Shown here: positions 2,325-37,158 of the stretch, piece after piece | How positions within the stretch are numbered: the first letter of the stretch is position 1 | Layout: each line of letters opens with the position of its first letter | Assembly (NCBI GenBank): GCA_000438195.1 | Contig: FR903071.1 | Span: 87,394-151,393, forward strand | Reading direction: 5' to 3' | From: Mycoplasma sp. CAG:776 | Lineage (GTDB): Bacteria; Bacillota_I; Bacilli_A; RF39; UBA660 | Length of the DNA stretch: 64,000 nucleotides | The notes under the pieces: model-generated | Database searches by the model: none | Told to the model about the DNA's origin: nothing | Seen by the model: the letters and a program-made list of their open reading frames with translations, nothing else | Translations under genes and position numbers: made by a program

Positions 2325-4528
2325 TAGAGTTCCTCCTCCTTTAATTGCGATAAAGCAATTTCTTTATAGATTTTGCATGTTTTTAAAAGCTCTTTATGAC
2401 TTCCACTTCCCACTATTTCTCCTTCATTTAAAACAATAATGTTATCCGCATTCATAATGGTACTTATTCTTTGGGCTACTATTAATATAGTAGCATCTTT
2501 GGCATGTTTAAATAAAGCTTTTCTTAAGGCTGCATCTGTTTTAAAGTCTAAAGCACTAAAAGAATCATCAAAAATATAAATTTCTGGATTCTTGGCTATG
2601 GCTCTAGCAATGGATAAACGCTGTTTTTGCCCACCACTCACATTTGTTCCACCTTGGGAAATTTCACTTTCAAACTTATCTTTTTTAGCATCTATGAATT
2701 CTAGAGATTGGCTAACTTTTGCTACCTTTATCATATCTTCTTCTGTTAAATTATCATTACCAAACATTAAATTAGATTTTATCGTTCCACTAAATAACAT
2801 TCCTTTTTGGGGAACATAGCCAATTCGATTTCTTAGTTCCATCACAGAAGCATCTTTTATATTTATTCCATCAACATATATTTCACCGTTAGTGGCATCA
2901 AAAAATCTTGGAATTAGATTAATTAAAGTAGATTTACCTGAGCCCGTTGAACCAATAAACGCCGTTGTTGTTCCAGGTGTAGCTTTAAAACTTATATTTT
3001 TTAGCATTGCTTCATCAGCATCGGGGTATTTAAAGCTTACATCTTTAAATTCAATTGTTCCCTTAGCTTCTTCTTTAAATGCTACTGGATTTTCTGGCTC
3101 TACTATTGAAACCTCTTTTTTTAATATTTCTCTAATTCTTTTTAATGAAACTAAAGCTCGTGGCATCATAACTGATACTAGAGATATCATTAAGAAAGAC
3201 ATAATAATTTGCATTGTATAACTAATAAATGCTAAAAGTGTTCCTACTTGTAACGAACCAATATCAATTTGCTTCGCTCCATACCAAACAATTAGAATAC
3301 TGATAATATTCATGACTAGCATCATACTCGGCATCATAATCCCCATTAAACGATTAACAAATAAATTAGTTTTAGTTAATTTAATATTTGCTTTATCAAA
3401 TCGTTCTTCTTCGTGCTTTTCTGTTCCAAACGTCCTTATTACTGGCATACCGGTAATAATCTCTCTAGATACTAGATTCATTTTATCAATTAGTTTTTGC
3501 ATACTCTTGAATTTTGGCATAGCAAAACCAAATAAAATGCCAATTAAAACAAAAATAACAATTAATGCAATACCAATAATCCAATTTAAAGGATTATCAC
3601 TTACTTTAATGAAGGCTCCTATTCCCATGATGGGAGCAAAAACAACTATTCGAAGCAACATAATAAAAAACATTTTTATCTGCTCAATGTCATTTGTTGA
3701 TCTAGTAATTAAACTAGACGCTCCAAATTCTTTAAATTCTTTAGAAGAAAAACTCATAATCTTTCTTACTACTTTCTCTCTTAAAACATATCCAATTTTA
3801 GCTGCCAATTTGGCTACTAAAAATCCTACAATAATTGCTATAACCATACCAGCTCCGGCAATCCCTAGCATAATTAATCCTTTATTCATAATATAACTTA
3901 TTTGATATTTATCCATATCCATACCAATTTCATTATAAATTGCTTTGACACTTGATATAGCATATTGATCTAACATCATAGAATCCATACTTTTTAAAGA
4001 TTGCTCTATAGAATTAATTACTGTATTAAAAGTTTCATCATCTAACTGTAATACTACATCTAATAGTGTACTTCCTTCTGGTATTGTCAAATTTAGATTT
4101 TGAGCAATATCTTCATTATTACTATAAAGCATTGTTGTAATTAATAGTGGGATTTTGATACGCTCTTCTACAATAGATTTTTCTTCTTCTGTTAAATCTT
4201 TTAATAAATAAAGATTTTCTTCTTTTAACAACGGATATTTTTCACTTAACGCTTCTAAATCTTGACTGTTTAGATTTTCTGGTATAAAAAGATCATAACT
4301 TACCATTATTGGAAGATCTTCTTTACTAATTTTAGCAATTCCATTATATATTTCACTAGTTAATACTTCTGGAAGACCACTATCAATTCCTCCTTGCTGA
4401 ATTCCATTATTAATAATATCTGATGTATAGCTTGGTAATTCAAGATCACATAATGCTTGAACTGCTAATAAGACTATTACAGCTATTATCGGAATTATAA
4501 ATTTTAAAAAAATATTTTGTTTTTTCAA
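2324..4528 (-). CDS. ABC transporter permease/ATP-binding fusion protein (heterodimeric multidrug-type exporter subunit) with large extracytoplasmic insertion after TM1
   Basis: Walker A GSTGSGKST, signature VSGGQKQR, Walker B IYIFDDSFSALD. 734 aa, with ~190-aa extra loop between TM1 and TM2. Confidence 0.9.
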   Translation of the reverse strand: MKKQNIFLKFIIPIIAVIVLLAVQALCDLELPSYTSDIINNGIQQGGIDSGLPEVLTSEIYNGIAKISKEDLPIMVSYDLFIPENLNSQDLEALSEKYPLLKEENLYLLKDLTEEEKSIVEERIKIPLLITTMLYSNNEDIAQNLNLTIPEGSTLLDVVLQLDDETFNTVINSIEQSLKSMDSMMLDQYAISSVKAIYNEIGMDMDKYQISYIMNKGLIMLGIAGAGMVIAIIVGFLVAKLAAKIGYVLREKVVRKIMSFSSKEFKEFGASSLITRSTNDIEQIKMFFIMLLRIVVFAPIMGIGAFIKVSDNPLNWIIGIALIVIFVLIGILFGFAMPKFKSMQKLIDKMNLVSREIITGMPVIRTFGTEKHEEERFDKANIKLTKTNLFVNRLMGIMMPSMMLVMNIISILIVWYGAKQIDIGSLQVGTLLAFISYTMQIIMSFLMISLVSVMMPRALVSLKRIREILKKEVSIVEPENPVAFKEEAKGTIEFKDVSFKYPDADEAMLKNISFKATPGTTTAFIGSTGSGKSTLINLIPRFFDATNGEIYVDGINIKDASVMELRNRIGYVPQKGMLFSGTIKSNLMFGNDNLTEEDMIKVAKVSQSLEFIDAKKDKFESEISQGGTNVSGGQKQRLSIARAIAKNPEIYIFDDSFSALDFKTDAALRKALFKHAKDATILIVAQRISTIMNADNIIVLNEGEIVGSGSHKELLKTCKIYKEIALSQLKEEEL

Positions 4529-6486: not shown

Positions 6487-7794
6487 TTAAATTTCATAAG
6501 GTGTGGAAGATGTTCCGTTTCCTGATTTTATAGTCACATCATGGGCCAGATTAATTACTGGGCGCACACCTAAAATATTTCCCATATTATCTCCTGCATA
6601 ATAGTAGTCTAAGCTTCCAGTTGCTGTTATAAAAAGTATTGCTGCTTGGCCTATATCTTGATCATCAAAACCATATGGCGTCATCGTCCAATAATATTGT
6701 TCAGTTCGTAGATAATAACTTTGGTTATTTGTCTTATAATTTCCGCCAGCATACACTACCTCATCTGCTGTAATAAGTCCGATTGGATTATCTAGTGCTC
6801 TGTTTCCTTTTTCACTTTCTTTTACTGTAAATAAATCTGTATTATTTTCACATTTTAAACTAGGATTTTTATTTTTTTCTAATCTATAATATGCTTTAAA
6901 ATATGTTTGCTTGCTCCCTATCCCTATTCCACTATCAAGACTTCGATCATTACAAAAGCCCTGACTCGTTTCTATATCTGAAACATAATTTGATAAGTTT
7001 TTAGTATACCAATTGTCTAGTAATTCTTTGATAGTGCTAGAATTAGTTAATCCATGCAGTTCGTTTAATGTATACATATATCCGACATATTCGCTTTTAT
7101 AATAATTTGAATTATAATAACTTTTGGCTATTTGAGCATTTGTATCATTATCTGTTGGACTTGTTCCTTGATAAATCATACGCACGCTCCCGTCTCCATT
7201 AATTCGAATTATCCTCCAATAATATCCTGCAAACTTTACATAATTATTCTCTACTGCACCTCTAAAATAATAACTTTCTCCCCAGTCATCTTCTGTTTTA
7301 TATATTCCCTCATCTGTTGTTGCTACCTGACTAAAATCTGGTTCTCCTTCATTTACTTTACTATTTGCTAATATTGCATCTTTTAATGTCTTTGACTCAA
7401 CAAAATATAAGTAACATCTTGTTCCTTTTTTTGACATTCCTAAAAAGTTGATTACTCCATTTTGATATTCTATTGTTATATTATTATCTTTCGTATCATT
7501 TACTTCACAATAACTTTTTTCTTCATTCAAACTATATCCACTTGTTGGTACGGTATCTATGCTTTCATAATCTCCATTTTCTTCTTGATACATCGCTACC
7601 ATTTTTAAATCATACGGTGTATAGTTGATTGTTCCATTCACTAATGGTATTGACTCAATAATTCGATATTTGGCTAAACTATTGTTAGTAATCAATACAA
7701 TAAGAAGTATTACTGCACAGACAAAACCACATAAAAAATATATTCTTTTTTTATTTCTTTTTAATGTTTCAAATTCTATACTTTCATTCTTCAA
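6487..7794 (-). CDS. Signal-anchored secreted/surface protein, paralog A of a duplicated family (conserved N- and C-termini, variable core)
   Basis: TTG start. N-terminal TM KKRIYFLCGFVCAVILLIVLITNNSLAKYR. C-terminal GVRPVINLAHDVTIKSGNGTSSTPYEI almost identical to 20174..21529. Shared central motif YYFRGAV-NN-VKFAGYYWRIIRINGDGS. Confidence 0.7.
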   Translation of the reverse strand: MKNESIEFETLKRNKKRIYFLCGFVCAVILLIVLITNNSLAKYRIIESIPLVNGTINYTPYDLKMVAMYQEENGDYESIDTVPTSGYSLNEEKSYCEVNDTKDNNITIEYQNGVINFLGMSKKGTRCYLYFVESKTLKDAILANSKVNEGEPDFSQVATTDEGIYKTEDDWGESYYFRGAVENNYVKFAGYYWRIIRINGDGSVRMIYQGTSPTDNDTNAQIAKSYYNSNYYKSEYVGYMYTLNELHGLTNSSTIKELLDNWYTKNLSNYVSDIETSQGFCNDRSLDSGIGIGSKQTYFKAYYRLEKNKNPSLKCENNTDLFTVKESEKGNRALDNPIGLITADEVVYAGGNYKTNNQSYYLRTEQYYWTMTPYGFDDQDIGQAAILFITATGSLDYYYAGDNMGNILGVRPVINLAHDVTIKSGNGTSSTPYEI

Positions 7795-8439: not shown

Positions 8440-8633
8440 TTAAAAAGTCAATCAAAAATTGATTATTTTAGCCAAAACGTTTTATGTAGAAGAAATTCCT
8501 ATTAATTTAATTTCCACTATTTTCTATATGATATATGCAAAAAGAGCAATATATCGCCAATTATCTTTTAGCTAAAATTGATAGTCCTAAATATCTTAAT
8601 AAATAGATATTTTTTATTTTAGTCATAGAAGTC
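8440..8633 (+). pseudogene. Decayed remnant of a third tandem-HTH regulator copy (operator plus 3' gene end retained)
   Basis: 8447..8474 repeats the upstream operator. 8560..8633 matches at DNA level the 3' end and downstream of HTH B (gattatcttttgggtaaaata...cctaaatatcttaa.taaata...ttttttattttagccatagaag). No intact ORF. Confidence 0.35.
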
Positions 8634-29229: not shown

Positions 29230-29829
29230 TTATATAATTTTTAAAATAAAATAAGTAAAGAAAATGTACAATAATAAATATGTACTACCAAATAGGATAG
29301 CTCCTATTACATCACTAAAATAGTGAACTCCTAAATATATTCTAGAATATCCCACTATTAATATTAACAATATCAGTAAAAAAATAATTATTATTTTAAG
29401 TGGTAATATTATATTACTAATGACAATTAAAAATATCATAAATCCATAAAAGATGGTAGATGTCATAGTGTGTCCGGATGGATAACTATATCCCTTTTCT
29501 TCTACTAATCTATTTATATTTGGCCTTGATCTTTTAAAAGTGTTCTTTAATATACCTATTAATCCCCACATAATTAACATATTTATTATTATAATTATTG
29601 ATATTTTCTTATTTTTTAAAATTAATAAAAATAGGAAACACAAAAGAATAATAAATTTGGCACTTCCTAGAAAGGTTACTATTTTCCAAAAAGAAGTTTT
29701 TAATCCATTTATTTTTATTTTTTGATATATTCTTTGATCTAAATTATTTAATCTACCTTTTAGCATTAAACTAGACCATATTAAGAATATTATAAATATA
29801 CTTATAAAAACTATTATCATAATCATCAC
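29230..29829 (-). CDS. PAP2-family membrane phosphatase (undecaprenyl-diphosphatase-like)
   Basis: PAP2 motifs KRSRPN, PSGHT, SRIYLGVHYFSD. Confidence 0.8.
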   Translation of the reverse strand: MMIMIIVFISIFIIFLIWSSLMLKGRLNNLDQRIYQKIKINGLKTSFWKIVTFLGSAKFIILLCFLFLLILKNKKISIIIIINMLIMWGLIGILKNTFKRSRPNINRLVEEKGYSYPSGHTMTSTIFYGFMIFLIVISNIILPLKIIIIFLLILLILIVGYSRIYLGVHYFSDVIGAILFGSTYLLLYIFFTYFILKII

Positions 29830-29904
29830 TTTATTATTATATCCTAAAAAAGATGATTTTTGCTAGTACAATTAAACATTTTATGCTATAATTATTTTGT
29901 ACTT

Positions 29905-29991
29905 GCCTGTGTGGCGGAATTGGTAGACGCGCTGGACTCAAAATCCAGTGGTAGCAATATCGTGTCGGTTCGAGTCCGACCACAGGCACCA
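29905..29991 (+). tRNA. tRNA-Leu (anticodon CAA), with encoded CCA
   Basis: 7-bp acceptor stem GCCTGTG/CACAGGC, anticodon loop CTCAAAA, long variable arm, T-loop GGTTCGAGTCC. 87 nt. Confidence 0.9.
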
Positions 29992-30063
29992 GAGGGAAAT
30001 CTGCTCGAACCGAAAAGGAAGAGCTTTCGATAAATGTCAATTCTATAGGGAATTGATTTTTTT

Positions 30064-30360
30064 GTGTTAGAAAGTGAGAAGATTTTCATGTTAAAGGTTG
30101 TAAAACAAGAAATTGAAATGGAAGCAGCTCTTAAAAAGAAGTTAGAATTTATATGTAGTTTCTGTAATATTACTCCCATTATCCAAAATGGAAGTATTAG
30201 AAAGTTAGAACAAACTAACTTAATTTATGTAGAACCTCATAGAATTATCATCAAAAATATTACTTTACTTGCCTTTAATTATGAGAGTAATCTTTATATT
30301 GAAAATTTAAGTAAAAGTATTCCATTAAAAGAATTAGAAAATTTTATTAAAACACTATAA
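30064..30360 (+). CDS. Hypothetical small protein (98 aa) at island edge
   Basis: ORF only. Confidence 0.3.
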   Translation: MLESEKIFMLKVVKQEIEMEAALKKKLEFICSFCNITPIIQNGSIRKLEQTNLIYVEPHRIIIKNITLLAFNYESNLYIENLSKSIPLKELENFIKTL

Positions 30361-30584
30361 AAAAACATGCACATCAATTCCTTATCTCCCATTTTACCTG
30401 GATTTTTTCTAAAAATTAGGAAAGAAAAATTATCATAACTTTACCCATAGACAAAACTAGATGTTTTGTTAAAATAAGTATGCTAGGAAAAAATATAATG
30501 ATTTCCACTTATTTAGATAACACAAACTATTTGTCTTGTGTTATTTTTTTATACTTTAAATGGATAGAAAGGATGATGTGATGA

Positions 30585-32488
<1,904 letters not shown>

Positions 32489-32726
32489 CTCTCCTAAATT
32501 TTTCTTTTTTTCTCATTTTTACAACTTTAAAAATTAAACAGGATATGATGTTTGCACCAGTTAAAAGAACCAACCCTTATTTTATAAGACTTTTTCTTTT
32601 ATTTTACTGGTGCCATTTTATTTTTGCACTTGCAAAAATAGATATAATTATATACAAAGTATATTACCTTTTTTAAAAAAAGCTAGGTAAATACTGATTT
32701 AATTTGTATTACTTTTTTATATAATT

Positions 32727-33173
32727 TTATTTTTTACTTTTCCCACAAACAGCACTCATTGAAATATGAAACTCTTTACAAAATTTATATAGATTGGAAG
32801 TAGAAATACATATAAGACCTTTTTCGTATCTAACAATACATGCTTGTGATACACCTAACAAGTCAGCAATATTTTCTTGAGACAAATTATGTTTTAGTCT
32901 AACTGCTTTCATATTATTACCTAATCTTTCTAGGTTCAATCCTTTATTTATTTTTGTGTTACGTTCATTTGTTAAACCAAGAACATAATCTATACTATAT
33001 TTAAAATAATCTGCATAATCACATAAGTTTTTAAGTGGAATAATGTTAATTCCTAATTCCCATAATGAATATGTAGAACGATTTACTTTTAGAATATTTG
33101 CCATTTTCTCTTGGCTAATGTCATTATCTTCTCTAATATCTTTTAATCTTGAAAAATCTATCATATACTTCAC
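32727..33173 (-). CDS. Tandem-HTH XRE-family regulator (island-encoded)
   Basis: Two XRE HTH units (ISQEKMANILKVNRSTYSLWE; LSQENIADLLGVSQACIVRYE). Confidence 0.7.
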   Translation of the reverse strand: MKYMIDFSRLKDIREDNDISQEKMANILKVNRSTYSLWELGINIIPLKNLCDYADYFKYSIDYVLGLTNERNTKINKGLNLERLGNNMKAVRLKHNLSQENIADLLGVSQACIVRYEKGLICISTSNLYKFCKEFHISMSAVCGKSKK

Positions 33174-33275
33174 CTAGGCTAATTATCGCATTAGGCGAAG
33201 AAAAAACATCAATATTGCTATTTACAGTTATATTTTCTGCTATTTTGTGTTATAATTAATAATTAGAAAGAAGGC

Positions 33276-33635
33276 GTGGAAATGACAAAATATTTATCAT
33301 TAAAAGAAAATGAAGAATTAATTATAGGAATGGATCAAAAGCCAAAAGTAGTTAGAATCAAAAATAAAAATAATAAATTACAAATAAGTGAGATTACTCC
33401 TGAAGAAATAACAGACAATATTGTAATTACAGAATTAAATTTTGATGAATTAAAAAGTTTTGTGTTGTACGAAAGTTATTATCAAGAAGTATCTAACCTT
33501 GATATAGATAAGGAAATAATGCAAAAAAATAATGATATATGTGAATATCATTATAAAAAAATTTATGGTGATAATTATAACGAAGATATATCAAATACTA
33601 AGTTTCAAGTTATTATTACTTTTGGCAAGAAATAG
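33276..33635 (+). CDS. Hypothetical protein (119 aa)
   Basis: ORF divergent from the XRE gene. Confidence 0.35.
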   Translation: MEMTKYLSLKENEELIIGMDQKPKVVRIKNKNNKLQISEITPEEITDNIVITELNFDELKSFVLYESYYQEVSNLDIDKEIMQKNNDICEYHYKKIYGDNYNEDISNTKFQVIITFGKK

Positions 33636-33729
33636 AATTTGAAAAAAGTTAACTCTAATCTTAAAAACAGGAAAATAATTTATAATCTACTTAATAAATT
33701 GCTTATTAAATCTTTATTAATTTGTGTCG

Positions 33730-34332
33730 TTAACTTTTTTGCGTTTCTTTTTTTCCGCAACAATACCGATATGGTCTACCGCTTCCACACGGACATTTCT
33801 TTTTGCCATTTTTCTTTTCTTCATATAAATGTAATTGGTGATTTTTTTTAGCAATTTGCCTATTATAATTGTCAATATCTTCTACAAAATCATATTTTTT
33901 ACATGATGGAATTCTAAAGGTAAAGGTTGTTTTACCATCTGTATTTGAAATTGCAAAATCGCCTAATTGAATAACGTCCATTCCAATAAGAGCATCAGCA
34001 CCATGTATTTCTGGTATTTCTGTAACTTTCACAGAGTTAATAACTACACCATTGGGGACAAGTATATCTACCAAATATACATTTTGGGATACTAAACCAC
34101 CAGCAGTGTGAACTTCAGCTTTTGAAATTGGAATTAAATTGCATTTTTTTGCTATATTTGAACTTATTGCGCTTGTTGTCGCTCCAGTATCCCAAATTCC
34201 TATTCCTGTTACTTCTATAGCATTTGCATTCTTAAAAGAAGAAGAAAATGAAACTTTTGTTAAAAGTACTGGAGTAATTTTTTCATAAGGAACTGTAAAA
34301 GCATGCCTAATTTCTTTTTTCGATTTATCCAT
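33730..34332 (-). CDS. Retropepsin-like aspartic protease domain protein with C-terminal SEC-C zinc-binding motif
   Basis: D-T-G-A active-site motif (GIWDTGATTSAIS) and C-terminal CPCGSGRPYRYCCG. Confidence 0.6.
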   Translation of the reverse strand: MDKSKKEIRHAFTVPYEKITPVLLTKVSFSSSFKNANAIEVTGIGIWDTGATTSAISSNIAKKCNLIPISKAEVHTAGGLVSQNVYLVDILVPNGVVINSVKVTEIPEIHGADALIGMDVIQLGDFAISNTDGKTTFTFRIPSCKKYDFVEDIDNYNRQIAKKNHQLHLYEEKKNGKKKCPCGSGRPYRYCCGKKETQKS

Positions 34333-34569
34333 TTAAAAAATTGCCCTCGTGTGAAAAACCTGAATACTATTTTGATCTTCTTTTTCACATTTCTGTATAA
34401 TAAACGTTCCCATTTCTAATTCAGAGGCATAAGTAATTGCCTTTTGTTCTTCTTTGCTGGCAAATATTACCTCTTGATTAGCTATTACTATATATTGTCC
34501 TTTATATTTTTTTAACAATTCCTTTAAATTGGCTTTAAACCATTTATAGTTTCTATCAACTTCATTCAT
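34333..34569 (-). CDS. Small hypothetical protein (78 aa) translationally coupled to the retropepsin-like gene
   Basis: Stop/start adjacent (34332/34333). Confidence 0.4.
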   Translation of the reverse strand: MNEVDRNYKWFKANLKELLKKYKGQYIVIANQEVIFASKEEQKAITYASELEMGTFIIQKCEKEDQNSIQVFHTRAIF

Positions 34570-34722
34570 AGCAAAAACTCCTTTCTTTTAAGTTAGAAAT
34601 ATATTATACTCTATGATCATTAGTTTTACAATATTAATATATCATATTTTTTTTTTTTTTTAAAGCCAAATGTTTAAACTTTAAAAAATTTTATTATTTT
34701 TTACACTACATCATAATTTTGT

Positions 34723-34800
34723 GTTAAAATATTATTAGATTTGAGATTTATCGACCTATTTTAATCTTAAAGGTTCTAAATAGGCTACTCTCTCGCACCA
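34723..34800 (+). repeat. 78-bp direct repeat, copy 1 (upstream of fic)
   Basis: Near-identical to 36047..36124 (2 mismatches). Ends in ...tctcgcacca. Confidence 0.6.
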
Positions 34801-34953
34801 AATTGAATTTTACTCAAAATTTTGAGTTATTATTGCACAATAATTGTGCAAAAAGCATATTTTTTTTATAAAAATGCACATTATTTCATAGATATTGTGC
34901 GTTTTTCTTTACTTTCTAGACTGAATATAGTAATATATTAAGGAGGTGAGAAA

Positions 34954-36033
34954 ATGGATCCTATAAAAGTTAAAAAATTACCACTTGAATATAAACTAGA
35001 TAAAGAGTTAATGAATTTGATTTCAGAAGCTAATTTAAAATTTGGAGAATACAAATCAAATTTAAAAAACAGTCAATTTGATTCAAGATTTTTTTTAGAC
35101 TCTATTATTTTAAGTGAAAGTTTAAAATCAACACAAATAGAGGGTACTCAAATTTCACAAGATGATATGTATTATTTAAAATATATGCCTAAAACAGATG
35201 ATAATTTAGAAATACAAAACTTAAAAAAGGTAATTGATTTTGCCAAAATGCATTTAAAAGATAATCATAAAATTGATATTAAATTCATTAATGATATTCA
35301 TAAGATATTATTAAATAGTGTTCGTGGAAATGAAAAAGATCCCGGGCATATTAGAACTACTCAAAATTGGATTGGCCCAAAAGGCTGTACGATTGAAGAA
35401 GCAACATTTATTCCGCCTATACCAGAAGAAGTTCCAATTTTGTTAAACAATTTATTTGAATATATGAATGATGCTTATGTTGATCCTATATTTATCAATT
35501 TGGCAATATCTCATTCACAATTTGAAACTATACATGCTTACTGTGATGGTAATGGTAGACTTGGTAGAGCACTCATTCCTGTTCAATTAGCTCTTTTAAC
35601 CGAAGAAGAACCAATTTTATTTTTATCAGAAGTAATTGAATTATATAAGCCTACTTATTATAAACTTTTAAACGAAAGTAGAAAAGGCAATATGTTGGGA
35701 TTTATAAAGTTTTTTTTGCAATGTATAATTGATCAATGCAATAATTATATTGCAAAAATAAATAGAATTAACCAAATTTATAATAAAGATATGGAAAAAA
35801 TTAAAATATTAAAAAGTAATGCTGTATATCGGATTATGCCTGCCATTATGAGACAAATTGTTTTTACAAAAAAAGAAATCGTAGAAGAGTCATCAGTTTC
35901 TAGAAATACTGTGTCTATATTAATAGACAAATTAGTAGAATTAAATATTTTAGAACCAGATTCTAATTATGCTAAGTTAGGTTATAGATACAATGAAATT
36001 TATAATGTCTTTGTGGGGAAAGATATGTCATAA
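34954..36033 (+). CDS. fic: Fic/Doc family protein (class II, with N-terminal inhibitory SxxxEG motif); AMPylase-type
   Basis: Fic motif HAYCDGNGRLGR. N-terminal STQIEG matches the (S/T)xxxE(G/N) inhibitory helix. 359 aa. Confidence 0.85.
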   Translation: MDPIKVKKLPLEYKLDKELMNLISEANLKFGEYKSNLKNSQFDSRFFLDSIILSESLKSTQIEGTQISQDDMYYLKYMPKTDDNLEIQNLKKVIDFAKMHLKDNHKIDIKFINDIHKILLNSVRGNEKDPGHIRTTQNWIGPKGCTIEEATFIPPIPEEVPILLNNLFEYMNDAYVDPIFINLAISHSQFETIHAYCDGNGRLGRALIPVQLALLTEEEPILFLSEVIELYKPTYYKLLNESRKGNMLGFIKFFLQCIIDQCNNYIAKINRINQIYNKDMEKIKILKSNAVYRIMPAIMRQIVFTKKEIVEESSVSRNTVSILIDKLVELNILEPDSNYAKLGYRYNEIYNVFVGKDMS

Positions 36034-36046
36034 AAATTTAAAGTAT

Positions 36047-36124
36047 GTTAAAATATTATTAGATTTGAGATTTATCGACCTATTTTAATCTTAAAGGTTT
36101 TAAATAGGCTACTTTCTCGCACCA
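36047..36124 (+). repeat. 78-bp direct repeat, copy 2 (downstream of fic), running straight into the 25-bp island-boundary repeat
   Basis: See copy 1. Confidence 0.6.
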
Positions 36125-36309
36125 GAGGGAAATAGCCTCGAACTATTCGAATTTTAATATATAGAAATCAATCGAAATGATTGATTTTTATCGTTATTAT
36201 CTAATGTTTTTCTTGATTATTTAAATAAATTAAGTTACAGTATACATTTTTATTTATTAATGAAAAAGACCAATTGTAGCAGTTGGTCTAATCGATAAAA
36301 TATAGTTTG

Positions 36310-36825
36310 TTATTTATTTCTTTTTACAAATATTATTCCTAATATTATAGTTATTGTTATAACTATAATTGGGGCAAATCTAAAGAATATCCATTCAAAT
36401 GAATGCCATATCGTTCCAATAACAGTCCATTCAGCATCATTGTAATCCCATGATTGATATGGACTATTTAATATTATGAATAAAATAAATAATAATATTA
36501 AAAATACATCAGCAATTATTAATGTATTAATCATTAGTTTTCTCTTTTGTTTTCGTTTCATTGATAATTGTTCATTTATAACTTCTAATTTTTCGGATAT
36601 TACTTGTAAGTCATTTTTTTCTTTTTCCTTGATGTTCTCACCTAGAATTTCACTAACCGGTGTTTCAAAAATTGTTGATATAGTTATTAACATTTCCGCA
36701 TCTGGAACAGATAAGCCTGACTCCCATTTTGAAATTGTTTGTCTAACAACATTTAATTTAATACTTAACTCTTCTTGGGAAAGTCCTTTTTGTTTTCTTA
36801 ATGCTTTTAAATTATCTTTTAACAT
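36310..36825 (-). CDS. XRE-family HTH protein with C-terminal transmembrane segments
   Basis: N-terminal HTH (LSQEELSIKLNVVRQTISKWESG), then 2 TMs. Terminator hairpin 36267..36289. Confidence 0.6.
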   Translation of the reverse strand: MLKDNLKALRKQKGLSQEELSIKLNVVRQTISKWESGLSVPDAEMLITISTIFETPVSEILGENIKEKEKNDLQVISEKLEVINEQLSMKRKQKRKLMINTLIIADVFLILLFILFIILNSPYQSWDYNDAEWTVIGTIWHSFEWIFFRFAPIIVITITIILGIIFVKRNK

Positions 36826-36912
36826 ATAACATTTTCTCCTTTCAAGTTAAGTTTATTATAAATATATCGTTGCTACAAGCAATGTATTTTAACATTGCAA
36901 TCAATTGTAAAT

Positions 36913-37158
36913 TTAATGAATAGTATGTGAAGTTATAATTGTGTAGCTATATGCGTTAATAGTTATCCTTATATTATTAATTTCACAATACCAATTCTTT
37001 CCTTGTTTATAAATATTACAGTTTTTATCTAAGATTTTATTTTTACAGTATTCAATTATATCATTAGTATTTAATTTAAGATTTTTCTTAATCCTATCCA
37101 TACCCATTTTGGTAGTATGAATTTTATCTATATTAGATAATAATATTTCTTTATTCAT
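36913..37158 (-). CDS. Small protein, DUF3781-like
   Basis: 81 aa, KNWYCE motif. Confidence 0.35.
   Translation of the reverse strand: MNKEILLSNIDKIHTTKMGMDRIKKNLKLNTNDIIEYCKNKILDKNCNIYKQGKNWYCEINNIRITINAYSYTIITSHTIH

Follow-up and report, generated by a model that had tools for sequence, protein, structure and literature searches.

A gene for a retropepsin-like aspartic protease and a small DUF5678 gene immediately upstream of it form a strictly linked, widely transferred cassette, found here in a window of 64,000 nucleotides from Mycoplasma sp. CAG:776. Tentatively, and at somewhat less than an even chance, the pair may be a toxin-antitoxin-like or abortive-infection-like mobile module with the protease as its effector. 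The window copy is carried by a decayed integrative element of roughly 4.8 kb at a tRNA-Leu gene. Bacterial retropepsins have barely been studied, and DUF5678 has no known function.

The two-gene unit and its proteins

The features of the pair, all on the minus strand, are as follows:

34333..34569 (-): DUF5678-like partner gene, 78 aa, gene 1 of the pair (open reading frame list and PF18929)
33730..34332 (-): retropepsin-like aspartic protease gene, 200 aa, gene 2 of the pair (open reading frame list and Pfam)
34335..34333 and 34332..34330 (-): stop/start junction TAA-ATG (TAA and ATG, respectively), with no nucleotide between
34578..34631 (-): upstream signals, AAGGAG and a promoter-like TTGTAA-17-TATAAT at 34631..34603
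34180..34191 (-): codons of the catalytic D48-T49-G50-A51, GATACTGGAGCG on the minus strand, preceded by W47
33976..33990 (-): codons of L115-I116-G117-M118-D119, the second retropepsin signature (hydrophobic-hydrophobic-Gly)
33808..33888 (-): predicted long helix, residues 149-175, joining the protease core to the metal-binding tail (DSSP on the AF2 model, pLDDT about 92)
33757..33795 (-): SEC-C / SecA-MBD-type knuckle C180-P-C182-G-S-G-R-P-Y-R-Y-C191-C192 (regex match at 33795)

The initial annotation had described two coupled open reading frames at 34332/34333, and the abutting small frame was confirmed, with TAA directly before ATG. By eye, a GAGGG was located at 34344-34348, inside the small gene and 11 nt 5′ of the protease ATG, and an AAGGAG ribosome-binding site at 34578-34583, 8 nt 5′ of the small-gene ATG. 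The TAA-ATG abutment and the internal GAGGG are, as far as the nucleotide sequence can indicate, the arrangement expected for translational coupling. The promoter-like sequence matches at 10/12 positions, in an AT-rich region where such sites are not above chance (13 found vs 12.1 expected). Both open reading frames are real genes rather than chance frames, because the protease and the small protein each have many homologues and their exact sequences have been deposited (CDF11575.1 and CDF11579.1, ‘Mycoplasma sp. CAG:776’). Each exact sequence is found on about 100 contigs. At least 705 homologues of the protease were identified, while the small-protein profile has 5717 word-index matches and the small protein 2553 representatives at 50% identity.

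The identification of the 200-aa protein as a retroviral-type protease from its D-T-G-A motif was upheld by Pfam scores, predicted fold and motif conservation. The profile search that had been proposed for it gave matches above the Pfam cut-offs for PF13975 gag-asp_proteas (37.5 bits, cut-off 28.2) and PF13650 Asp_protease_2 (33.6 bits, cut-off 24.3), with SEC-C falling just below. Membership of the TIGR02281 subfamily was ruled out by an NCBIfam score of 20.8 bits, far under the cut-off of 57.95. For both window proteins, the NCBIfam search returned sub-threshold matches only, and the PHROGs search nothing better than E=0.09. The AF2 model of the protease (pLDDT 90.9) has a predicted retropepsin fold, and its best PDB matches in Foldseek are APRc of Rickettsia (5c9b) and the proteases of FIV, EIAV, RSV and foamy virus (probability 1.0, E=5e-6 to 1e-3), with which it shares just 10-21% sequence identity. 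The W-D-T-G-A motif is invariant in 26/26 sequences of the family alignment, and across 144 pairs its D, T and A are conserved at 100% and its W and G at 99%. Conservation of the L-I-G-M-D signature across the same pairs is 99% for G and M, 94% for L, 91% for D and 89% for I. Like APRc and the retroviral proteases, the window protease has the hydrophobic-hydrophobic-Gly motif and one D-T/S-G-A motif per chain, which is intact. Clan AA retropepsins with a single motif per chain must homodimerise to form one active site, and the window protease is therefore expected, by analogy, to act as a homodimer. Unlike APRc and the retroviral proteases, it has an additional N-terminal β-hairpin of about 45 residues ahead of the DTG, and its C-terminal part adds a long helix and a putative zinc knuckle of the SecA type. 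APRc is membrane-anchored and, to our knowledge, has not been described with a partner gene; nor do we know of any retropepsin with an obligate DUF5678 partner.

The C-terminal tail had been read as SEC-C-type, and it does carry the corresponding cysteine pattern (C180, C182, C191 and C192), a CxC-x8-CC ligand arrangement at the C-terminus, with a PF02810 score of 18.4 bits just below the cut-off of 20.4. The window tail is a divergent SEC-C copy (K-K-K-C-P-C-G-S-G-R-P-Y-R-Y-C-C); most of the protease relatives have a precomputed PF02810 match, and the ligands C180, C182 and C191 are invariant in the family. Across the pairs, 67% of the proteases have a predicted SecA-like metal-binding domain (MBD) as their tail and 26% a Lys/Arg-rich one. 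The CxC-x8-C-[CH] knuckle, which in most of the family has G-R-N-x-P ahead of it, is shared with the C-terminal MBD of SecA and AscA (YecA), but in this family it is located on a protease instead of a translocation ATPase or chaperone.

The 78-aa partner, initially annotated as a protein of unknown function, is not an orphan, as it belongs to DUF5678 (PF18929; 29.4 bits, cut-off 23.2, E=7e-7). Its AF2 model (pLDDT 76, with residues 61-78 of low confidence) has a helix-helix-strand-strand-helix-strand core and matches DUF5678 proteins in BFVD (TM 0.69-0.70, E=2e-4). The C-terminal strand bears a conserved Q-x-F-H-(S/T)-R-(V/A)-x-F motif (Q70..F78 in the window), and the best-conserved positions over 144 pairs are G54 and Q59 (99%), F56 and I29 (95%), R75 (94%) and H73 (83%). 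Pfam, PDB sequence and fold searches matched nothing in the PDB and gave no sign of an RHH, HTH, AbrB or Phd-like fold, and no PADLOC model matched the small protein. The best 150 DUF5678-like representatives include a few tandem duplications but no fusions to a protease domain. The small protein is the more conserved of the two, with a mean pairwise identity over 144 pairs of 46.6% vs 40.8% for the protease; for the closest relatives, the values are 59-73% vs 53-61%. The two proteins show correlated divergence (r=0.56). A C-terminal H-[STP]-R motif, which is H-S/T-R in most small proteins, is present alongside 76 SEC-C and 23 basic protease tails, and absent alongside 21 SEC-C and 15 basic tails. 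In one clade, neither the motif nor the SEC-C tail is present. The idea that motif loss tracks protease tail type was rejected, the association being weak overall and confounded by phylogeny.

Linkage, spread and genomic surroundings

The small gene is located immediately upstream in every protease locus examined (about 100 loci), and a protease without it was never seen among them. It is directly 5′ and on the same strand in 5/5 genome loci and 80/80 IMG/VR protease loci, and was also found upstream of the protease at nine further loci and in a Leptospira phage. Counted from the small gene, a protease follows at 69 of the 72 assessable metagenome loci, and is missing from 28 of 71 small-gene loci in IMG/VR, where the small gene either stands alone or is followed by a 91-aa or 335-aa protein. 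Small genes on their own are also found in several phage lineages (loci L132, L135, L138 and L189-192). An antidote and a poison would be expected to behave like the small gene, which can stand alone, and the protease, which never does, respectively. Across the whole family, the usual spacings from small gene to protease are -8, -4 and -1 to +26 nt, and the two genes mostly overlap, by 1-8 nt.

The hosts span at least six bacterial phyla in a patchy distribution, which includes Bacillota, Bacteroidota, Nitrospirota, Chloroflexota and Planctomycetota as well as Leptospira phages, among them LE1-like phages that carry the protease. The protease is encoded on 216 viral contigs in IMG/VR and in only 5 of 50,697 deposited phage records. 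None of the PLSDB plasmids has the cassette, an absence that is unusual for an addiction module.

Neighbouring genes were surveyed at 62 non-redundant viral loci. Upstream neighbours include Amidase_2 lysins (5), minor tail proteins (4), S24 repressors (4) and ANT/Bro proteins (3), and downstream neighbours include integrases (7), ANT/Bro proteins (3) and HicB (2); no third gene is conserved among the 62 loci. Within prophages, the pair occupies accessory regions that have lysis or tail genes on one side and the integrase on the other, and it is often on the late-gene strand. The full prophage L116, for example, has the pair between a CHAP lysin and a serine-recombinase integrase, after a terminator-like hairpin. 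At other loci, the pair lies directly after HigB/HigA and adjoins a transposase (L118), lies beside PemK/MazF (L004) or beside a STAND NTPase and a transposase (L005), or shares an island with pAgo, NOV_C and a restriction-like nuclease (L108-111). SocA_Panacea (PanA) antitoxin-domain genes flank the small gene in L134 and L140, where it directly follows one of them with a 1-nt gap. Ordinary chromosomal surroundings were found for L003 (beside a CN-hydrolase gene), L105 (directly after secA) and L117 (beside polA, fpg and the L32 gene). Five loci (L004, L005, L105, L108 and L117) have no recognisable phage genes nearby. No operator-like palindrome is shared upstream of the pair; the only structures found there are terminator-like hairpins, which precede the small gene in L116 and L108. 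The gene-neighbourhood survey, which the initial annotation had suggested as a check, supported that annotation: it recovered the small partner at essentially every protease locus, in contexts that were mostly prophage accessory regions, toxin-antitoxin clusters, transposase-flanked sites and one pAgo island rather than housekeeping operons.

The element that carries the pair in the window is delimited by the following features:

29905..30010 (+): tRNA-Leu(CAA) gene (29905-29991) and att-like core GCACCAGAGGGAAATCTGCTCGAAC (29986-30010), left end of the element
30585..32488 (+): large serine recombinase gene of the element, in which a frameshift near 30715-30730 separates an N-terminal open reading frame of 66 aa from one of 569 aa
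34722..34823 (+): 102-nt direct repeat, copy 1, with a degenerate tRNA-Leu 3′ end and flank at 34795-34819
36046..36147 (+): 102-nt repeat, copy 2, 88% identical to copy 1

The recombinase has Resolvase, Recombinase and Zn_ribbon_recom domains and shares 30% identity with the integrase of prophage L116. Its reading frames were judged by eye. The identical 66+569 split is found in independent assemblies, and the recombinase is probably inactive. Copy 1 of the 102-nt repeat likely marks the right end of the roughly 4.8-kb element, while copy 2 contains a better att-like core at 36119-36143 (88%). The two copies bracket a Fic gene (34954-36033), which is a separate cassette outside the protease/DUF5678 unit. 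The earlier placement of the pair on a mobile island beside Fic and regulators holds, since the pair is on an integrated element next to Fic and XRE genes, with the refinement that Fic sits in its own repeat-bounded cassette. An Rfam search of 29800-37000 returned the tRNA-Leu only, and the 102-nt repeats match no known RNA. A 119-aa open reading frame beside the pair was considered as a homologue of the 108-aa gene at the same position in L116, but the comparison showed no homology. Both genes of the pair are intact in the window while the recombinase of the element is frameshifted.

Possible function and competing explanations

The initial annotation is partly supported, in that its anatomical observations are borne out and the toxin/antitoxin-like or defence-associated role that it put forward is a candidate one. 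The cassette has several traits of type II toxin-antitoxin modules, namely adjacent co-directional genes, a conserved pair, tight or overlapping spacing, mobile carriage and a patchy phylogenetic distribution. Having the small gene first, with overlaps of -8, -4 and -1, is likewise typical of type II modules. The likeness to HigBA, MazEF and HicAB extends to co-directional overlapping genes, strict pairing, patchy horizontal transfer, and siting in prophages and islands beside other toxin-antitoxin pairs, with the putative antidote occurring as an orphan and the putative toxin never. A DNA-binding, autoregulating antitoxin was not seen (no fold match, no shared palindrome). In contrast to these modules, no DNA-binding domain is recognisable in the small partner, which is also better conserved than its large counterpart. 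As a rule, antitoxins diverge more quickly than their cognate toxins, and both features count against a classical antitoxin, although DNA binding by the antitoxin is not required in all toxin-antitoxin types. We know of no described toxin that is a clan AA aspartic protease.

In a module of this kind, the protease would be the harmful effector, and the small protein would bind it and keep it inactive, for example by blocking dimerisation or filling the substrate cleft. The protease could then be freed by a trigger, for instance when a phage infects the cell, the element is lost or the partner is degraded. Its tail, whether a SecA-like zinc knuckle or Lys/Arg-rich, might bring it to a polyanionic or SecA-MBD-binding target, for which the ribosome and SecB are candidates, and cleavage there would arrest growth. 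In the window, the cassette would have outlived the decay of the integrative element that delivered it to the tRNA-Leu gene. A functional parallel is Lit from the defective prophage e14 of E. coli, a protease that is silent until phage infection, when it cleaves a translation component and growth stops. Lit is a zinc metalloprotease encoded by a single gene, and its likeness to the pair is an analogy in the way of working only, as the sequences are unrelated.

The pair could instead serve the phages that carry it, with the protease processing a phage or host protein to the advantage of a temperate phage (in lysogeny control, in superinfection exclusion through cleavage of a receptor or secretion component, or in counter-defence) and the small protein acting as cofactor, chaperone or substrate. 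We regard this as unlikely, even though the 216 IMG/VR contigs, the position by lysis, tail and integrase genes (often on the late-gene strand) in complete-looking prophages, and the presence in Leptospira LE1-like phages speak for it, and a cofactor or substrate would explain the high conservation of the small protein better than an antitoxin, which would evolve fast. The position of the pair in phage genomes is variable and it has no fixed neighbour, so that it does not belong to any conserved phage module; moreover, the protease is rare in deposited phage records, the pair is also found at the five loci away from recognisable phage genes, and the window copy survives in a remnant where no phage is left. 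Quite unlikely is a reversed polarity, in which the small DUF5678-like protein is active or toxic and the protease is an antidote or maturation enzyme that cleaves it constantly or on cue, following the logic of a type VII-like ‘enzyme antitoxin’ with the small toxin first as in HicA/HicB. Such an arrangement would suit the better conservation of the small protein with its near-invariant polar residues (Q59, R75 and H73), the low-confidence C-terminal segment of its AF2 model, as expected for a cleavable or partner-bound tail, the 1-nt gap behind SocA_Panacea antitoxin-domain genes in L134 and L140, and the possible nucleic-acid-binding tail of the larger partner, which recalls HicB-type antitoxins. 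Orphan small genes are hard to square with a toxin unless those copies are inactive, and a protease that is never alone is the opposite of what is expected of an antidote.

A housekeeping or regulatory protease is, in our view, also quite unlikely. It would monitor protein quality at the ribosome or in the Sec pathway, using the small subunit as an adaptor, and its presence on mobile DNA would be hitch-hiking. It draws on L105, where the pair directly follows secA and the protease tail is identical to the metal-binding domain of the adjacent SecA at 22/24 residues, on the metabolic or housekeeping surroundings of L117 and L003, and on the binding of SecA-type MBDs to SecB and ribosomes (bioRxiv 10.1101/613315; 10.1101/2020.07.21.215244). 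Recent gene conversion was ruled out as the source of the L105 identity by many synonymous DNA differences, including a TCT/AGT serine switch, which indicate that the match to SecA is maintained at the protein level. Against a housekeeping role are the patchy distribution across phyla, neighbours that differ at nearly every locus and frequently belong to prophages, transposases, toxin-antitoxin systems or pAgo, and the quarter of the family in which a plain Lys/Arg-rich tail replaces the MBD.

Returning to the module with a protease effector, its confirmation would bring aspartic proteases into the prokaryotic conflict-effector repertoire, provide a prokaryotic case of a retropepsin controlled by a dedicated protein partner, and show that a SecA-type metal-binding domain works as a portable targeting tag. 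A more specific version, which we consider unlikely, is that the pair is a new mobile conflict module in which a retropepsin effector, restrained by DUF5678 and guided by a SecA-MBD-mimicking (or Lys/Arg-rich) tail to the ribosome or SecB/Sec, would stop growth by cleaving ribosome- or secretion-associated proteins upon infection or element loss. If true, this would be the first function for DUF5678, and retropepsins would join the prokaryotic immune or addiction effectors.

A literature search found no publication on the pair or on any DUF5678 function; the sole prokaryotic lead is a note on small retropepsins found alongside type III CRISPR loci in Sulfolobales (PMC3973734). The window proteins and 126 family members had no system-level match in PADLOC-DB v2. 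A related small aspartic protease has, judging by sequence similarity, already been flagged there as a defence candidate, PDC-M08B of the candidate system PDC-M08. The PDC-M08B models (profiles of about 128 positions, without the tail) align to the retropepsin core, and 33 of about 63 family proteases match one of them (best E=1.5e-7), a weak similarity well below the same-family level. Protease matches to the PADLOC E2, E1-E2 and PDC-S12 models cover the SEC-C tail only; such tails recur at the C-termini of the CBASS E2 and E1-E2 models and of PDC-S12, and Rugutis, a SEC-C protein, is a validated antiphage gene (PMC11381338).

The gene pair and its element at tRNA-Leu

The initial annotation's two minus-strand ORFs, a retropepsin-like gene and a small coupled gene, are borne out. 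GAGGG lies 11 nt 5′ of the protease ATG, and AAGGAG 8 nt ahead of the small-gene ATG. The 200-aa protein scores above the curated Pfam thresholds for gag-asp_proteas (37.5 bits) and Asp_protease_2 (33.6 bits), and slightly below the cut-off for SEC-C (18.4 vs 20.4 bits). The 78-aa protein is no orphan; it belongs to DUF5678 (29.4 bits, over the Pfam threshold). The exact sequences are deposited under Mycoplasma sp. CAG:776 as ‘SEC-C motif domain protein’ and ‘putative uncharacterized protein’, and each is present on approximately 100 contigs.

Features of the pair and its surroundings (window positions)
29905-29991: tRNA-Leu(CAA)
29986-30010: tRNA-Leu 3′ end plus flank, recurring at 36119-36143 (88%) and, degenerate, at 34795-34819
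29992-34819: element of ~4.8 kb containing a large serine recombinase, an XRE regulator, a 119-aa orphan ORF and the pair
30064-30360: 98-aa ORF within the element, no Pfam match
30585-32488: large serine recombinase, split by a frameshift near 30715-30730 (66 + 569 aa)
33276-33635: 119-aa ORF within the element, no Pfam match
34332..33730, minus strand: 200-aa retropepsin-like gene (ORF and Pfam)
34335..34333 and 34332..34330, minus strand: abutting stop (TAA) and start (ATG) codons of the pair (sequence)
34569..34333, minus strand: 78-aa DUF5678 gene (ORF and Pfam)
34722-34823 and 36046-36147: 102-nt direct repeat, 88% identical, bracketing the Fic gene
34954-36033: Fic gene, between the 102-nt repeats

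At the end of both 102-nt repeats, the 3′ end of tRNA-Leu recurs together with its flank, a layout that suggests two successive insertions at one att site and makes Fic a tiny cassette of its own. No Rfam family matches the stretch of ~75 nt that lies 5′ of the att core in either repeat. Given the att-like copies and the repeats around Fic, the pair is the terminal cargo of the ~4.8-kb element, and Fic lies outside that element in a separate adjacent cassette. The N-terminal catalytic part of the recombinase (containing GYEM) and the remainder (containing MLEDIRNKK) are in different frames. Since the same split occurs in independent metagenome assemblies, the recombinase is probably a real pseudogene and not a sequencing error. 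It shares 30% identity with the integrase that prophage L116 carries at the corresponding position, and the element looks like the end of a decayed prophage or integrative element in which the pair is still intact. The 119-aa ORF occupies the same position as an HNH-like 108-aa gene in L116, and was rejected as its counterpart because the two are not homologous.

Pairing and properties of the two proteins

The small gene lies directly upstream of the protease, on the same strand, in all five genome loci (Muribaculaceae, Nitrospirales, Dehalococcoidia, Brocadiaceae and Caldilineaceae). It is also upstream in 80/80 IMG/VR loci listed, out of 216 viral contigs that encode a relative; spacing there clusters at −8, −4 and −1 to +26 nt. 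Nine further contig loci and one Leptospira phage have the same arrangement, among them two loci at which the small ORF was missed by the public gene caller, yet is present. From the small-gene side, the protease is directly downstream in 69 of 72 assessable metagenome loci and in only 43 of 71 IMG/VR loci. Of the remaining IMG/VR small genes, some are orphans; downstream of the others comes either an overlapping 91-aa ORF or a predicted membrane protein of 335 aa, and SocA_Panacea antitoxin-domain genes flank some of them. No protease without the small gene was seen among the loci surveyed. The pairing is therefore asymmetric as well as obligate: small genes also occur with no protease, and the converse was never seen. 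The two proteins diverge in a correlated manner (r = 0.56), and the small one is the more conserved (mean pairwise identity 46.6% vs 40.8%).

At two loci (L120, L121), public calls give an antisense ORF in place of the small ORF. In Leptospira phage LbrZ_5399 (L115; KF114879.1), the protease homologue (4001-4438) is mostly without an annotated CDS; the annotation there is limited to an 80-aa DUF5678-like gene ahead of it (3726-3968) plus a glimmer ORF of 49 aa. Among the DUF5678-like genes without a protease (L134, L140, L145, L152, about 2460-4216; L172-L183; L132, L135, L138, L189-L192), some overlap the 91-aa ORF, for which Pfam has no match, and these small genes have one or two SocA_Panacea (PanA) genes at their flanks. 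Others have, ~170 nt further downstream, a gene for a 335-346-aa protein predicted to contain membrane helices, and others stand alone.

In an alignment of 26 protease homologues, W47-D48-T49-G50-A51-T52 is invariant, as are L115, G117-M118, G124-D125, T135, F139, P142 and the tail cysteines C180, C182 and C191. The active-site D, T and A are conserved in 100% of 144 distinct family members. The AlphaFold2 model built from this alignment is confident (pLDDT 90.9), and its best PDB matches (probability 1.0) are Rickettsia APRc and the proteases of FIV, EIAV, RSV and foamy virus. Unlike these, the window protease adds an N-terminal hairpin, a long helix (149-175) and a C-terminal knuckle. Retropepsins with a single DTG per chain need to homodimerise for activity; the window protease, also with one DTG per chain, would act as a homodimer. 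A 288-aa family protein (P0054; L118, 8001-8867) has a tandem duplication of its first ~90 residues, including a second W-D-T-G-A-T; it may represent a pseudo-dimeric form of the enzyme or may stem from faulty assembly.

With the small-protein profile, a word-index search found 5717 relatives. Representatives at 50% identity number 2553, 942 of them at E ≤ 1e-10; the best 150 of the 2553 are almost all stand-alone (77-124 aa), with no protease fusion among them. The AF2 model (pLDDT 76) has a helix-helix-strand-strand-helix-strand core and a low-confidence C-terminus bearing a conserved Q-x-F-H-(S/T)-R-(V/A)-x-F motif. G54 and Q59 are conserved at 99% and R75 at 94%. No significant PDB match was found by sequence or by fold, and in a viral structure library only DUF5678 proteins match (TM 0.70). 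The closest of these (BFVD A0A2U7UG46, S4VV29 and A0A2U7UD66) are from Pandoravirus, giant viruses of amoebae, and the fold thus extends beyond prokaryotes and their phages.

The protease tail

Over 144 distinct pairs, the protease ends in a SEC-C knuckle in 97, a Lys/Arg-rich tail in 38 and neither in nine. Matches of the protease family to the PADLOC profiles for CBASS E2, E1-E2 and PDC-S12 span the SEC-C tail only. As these profiles end in such a tail, the SecA-like knuckle seems to recur as an add-on at the C-termini of defence-associated proteins. Rugutis, a validated lactococcal antiphage protein, has a SEC-C motif (PMC11381338). SecA-type metal-binding domains (MBDs; SecA, AscA/YecA) bind SecB and ribosomes (bioRxiv 10.1101/613315; 10.1101/2020.07.21.215244). 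Through this tail, the protease would be targeted to a partner that is polyanionic or binds MBDs.

At locus L105, the protease is encoded 550 nt downstream of secA, an adjacency seen in one lineage alone (L105-L107). The protease tail (8481-8555) is identical to the SecA C-terminus (7381-7455) at 22 of 24 residues. The DNA is ~80% identical with many synonymous differences; recent gene conversion was therefore rejected, and the resemblance is kept at the protein level. In the PADLOC profiles PDLC00865/00872/00833 (E2, E1-E2) and PDLC04917 (PDC-S12), the aligned tail covers about positions 165-192 of 219 and 188-216 of 218. Lys/Arg-rich tails (e.g., ...KRKARNRRKRDKRKKK) occur at L035, L049, L087 and L100, among others. 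In a clade with ‘...HGKGK(K/R)...’ tails, the small partners lack the C-terminal F-H-S-R-V and end in ...AYTNYISS(M/I)(N/C)F.

Genomic settings and candidate roles

Across 62 non-redundant viral loci, no conserved third gene accompanies the pair. Upstream, the genes that occur most often encode lysis amidases, minor tail proteins, S24 repressors and ANT/Bro antirepressors; downstream, they encode integrases, ANT/Bro, HicB and methyltransferases. This setting is the accessory (‘moron’) zone of temperate phages.

Surroundings of the pair at selected surveyed loci
L116: complete-looking prophage, protease 56% identical to that of the window; pair, with a terminator-like hairpin ahead of it, between a CHAP endolysin and a large serine recombinase
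L118: HigB/HigA and a transposase, then the pair
L004: pair adjoins PemK/MazF
L005: pair adjoins a STAND NTPase and a transposase
L108-111: Bacteroidota island, pair with pAgo, NOV_C and a restriction-like nuclease
L105 (after secA), L117, L003: minority of loci, housekeeping-looking

The best-supported reading, tentative and a little short of an even chance, is a toxin-antitoxin-like or abortive-infection-like cassette in which the protease is the effector, held in check by an obligate partner, the DUF5678 protein. It is favoured by the gene order and overlaps, the strict, asymmetric pairing, the mobility across phyla, the prophage accessory sites with toxin-antitoxin and defence neighbours, and the survival of the pair in a decayed element. 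Evidence against a classical type II module comes from the partner, which has no DNA-binding fold and exceeds the protease in conservation, from the lack of any plasmid copy in PLSDB, and from some loci in ordinary chromosomal surroundings. A protease that serves the phage would share the accessory-zone setting and is rather unlikely; the pair is found in only five deposited phage records. That the polarity is reversed, with the small protein as the active component, is doubtful: small genes do occur alone. A protease with a housekeeping role at the ribosome or in the Sec pathway would sit with the housekeeping-looking loci and the SecA-like tail, and is improbable.

Under the preferred cassette reading, the pair would be a mobile conflict module of two genes whose effector class and partner are unprecedented. 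Both domains are already in Pfam and both proteins are deposited. No defence system catalogued in PADLOC fits the pair as a whole, and no paper on it was found in the literature searched, publications beyond that coverage being possible. Among catalogued entries, the PADLOC candidate PDC-M08 comes closest; its B component is a small retropepsin with distant similarity.
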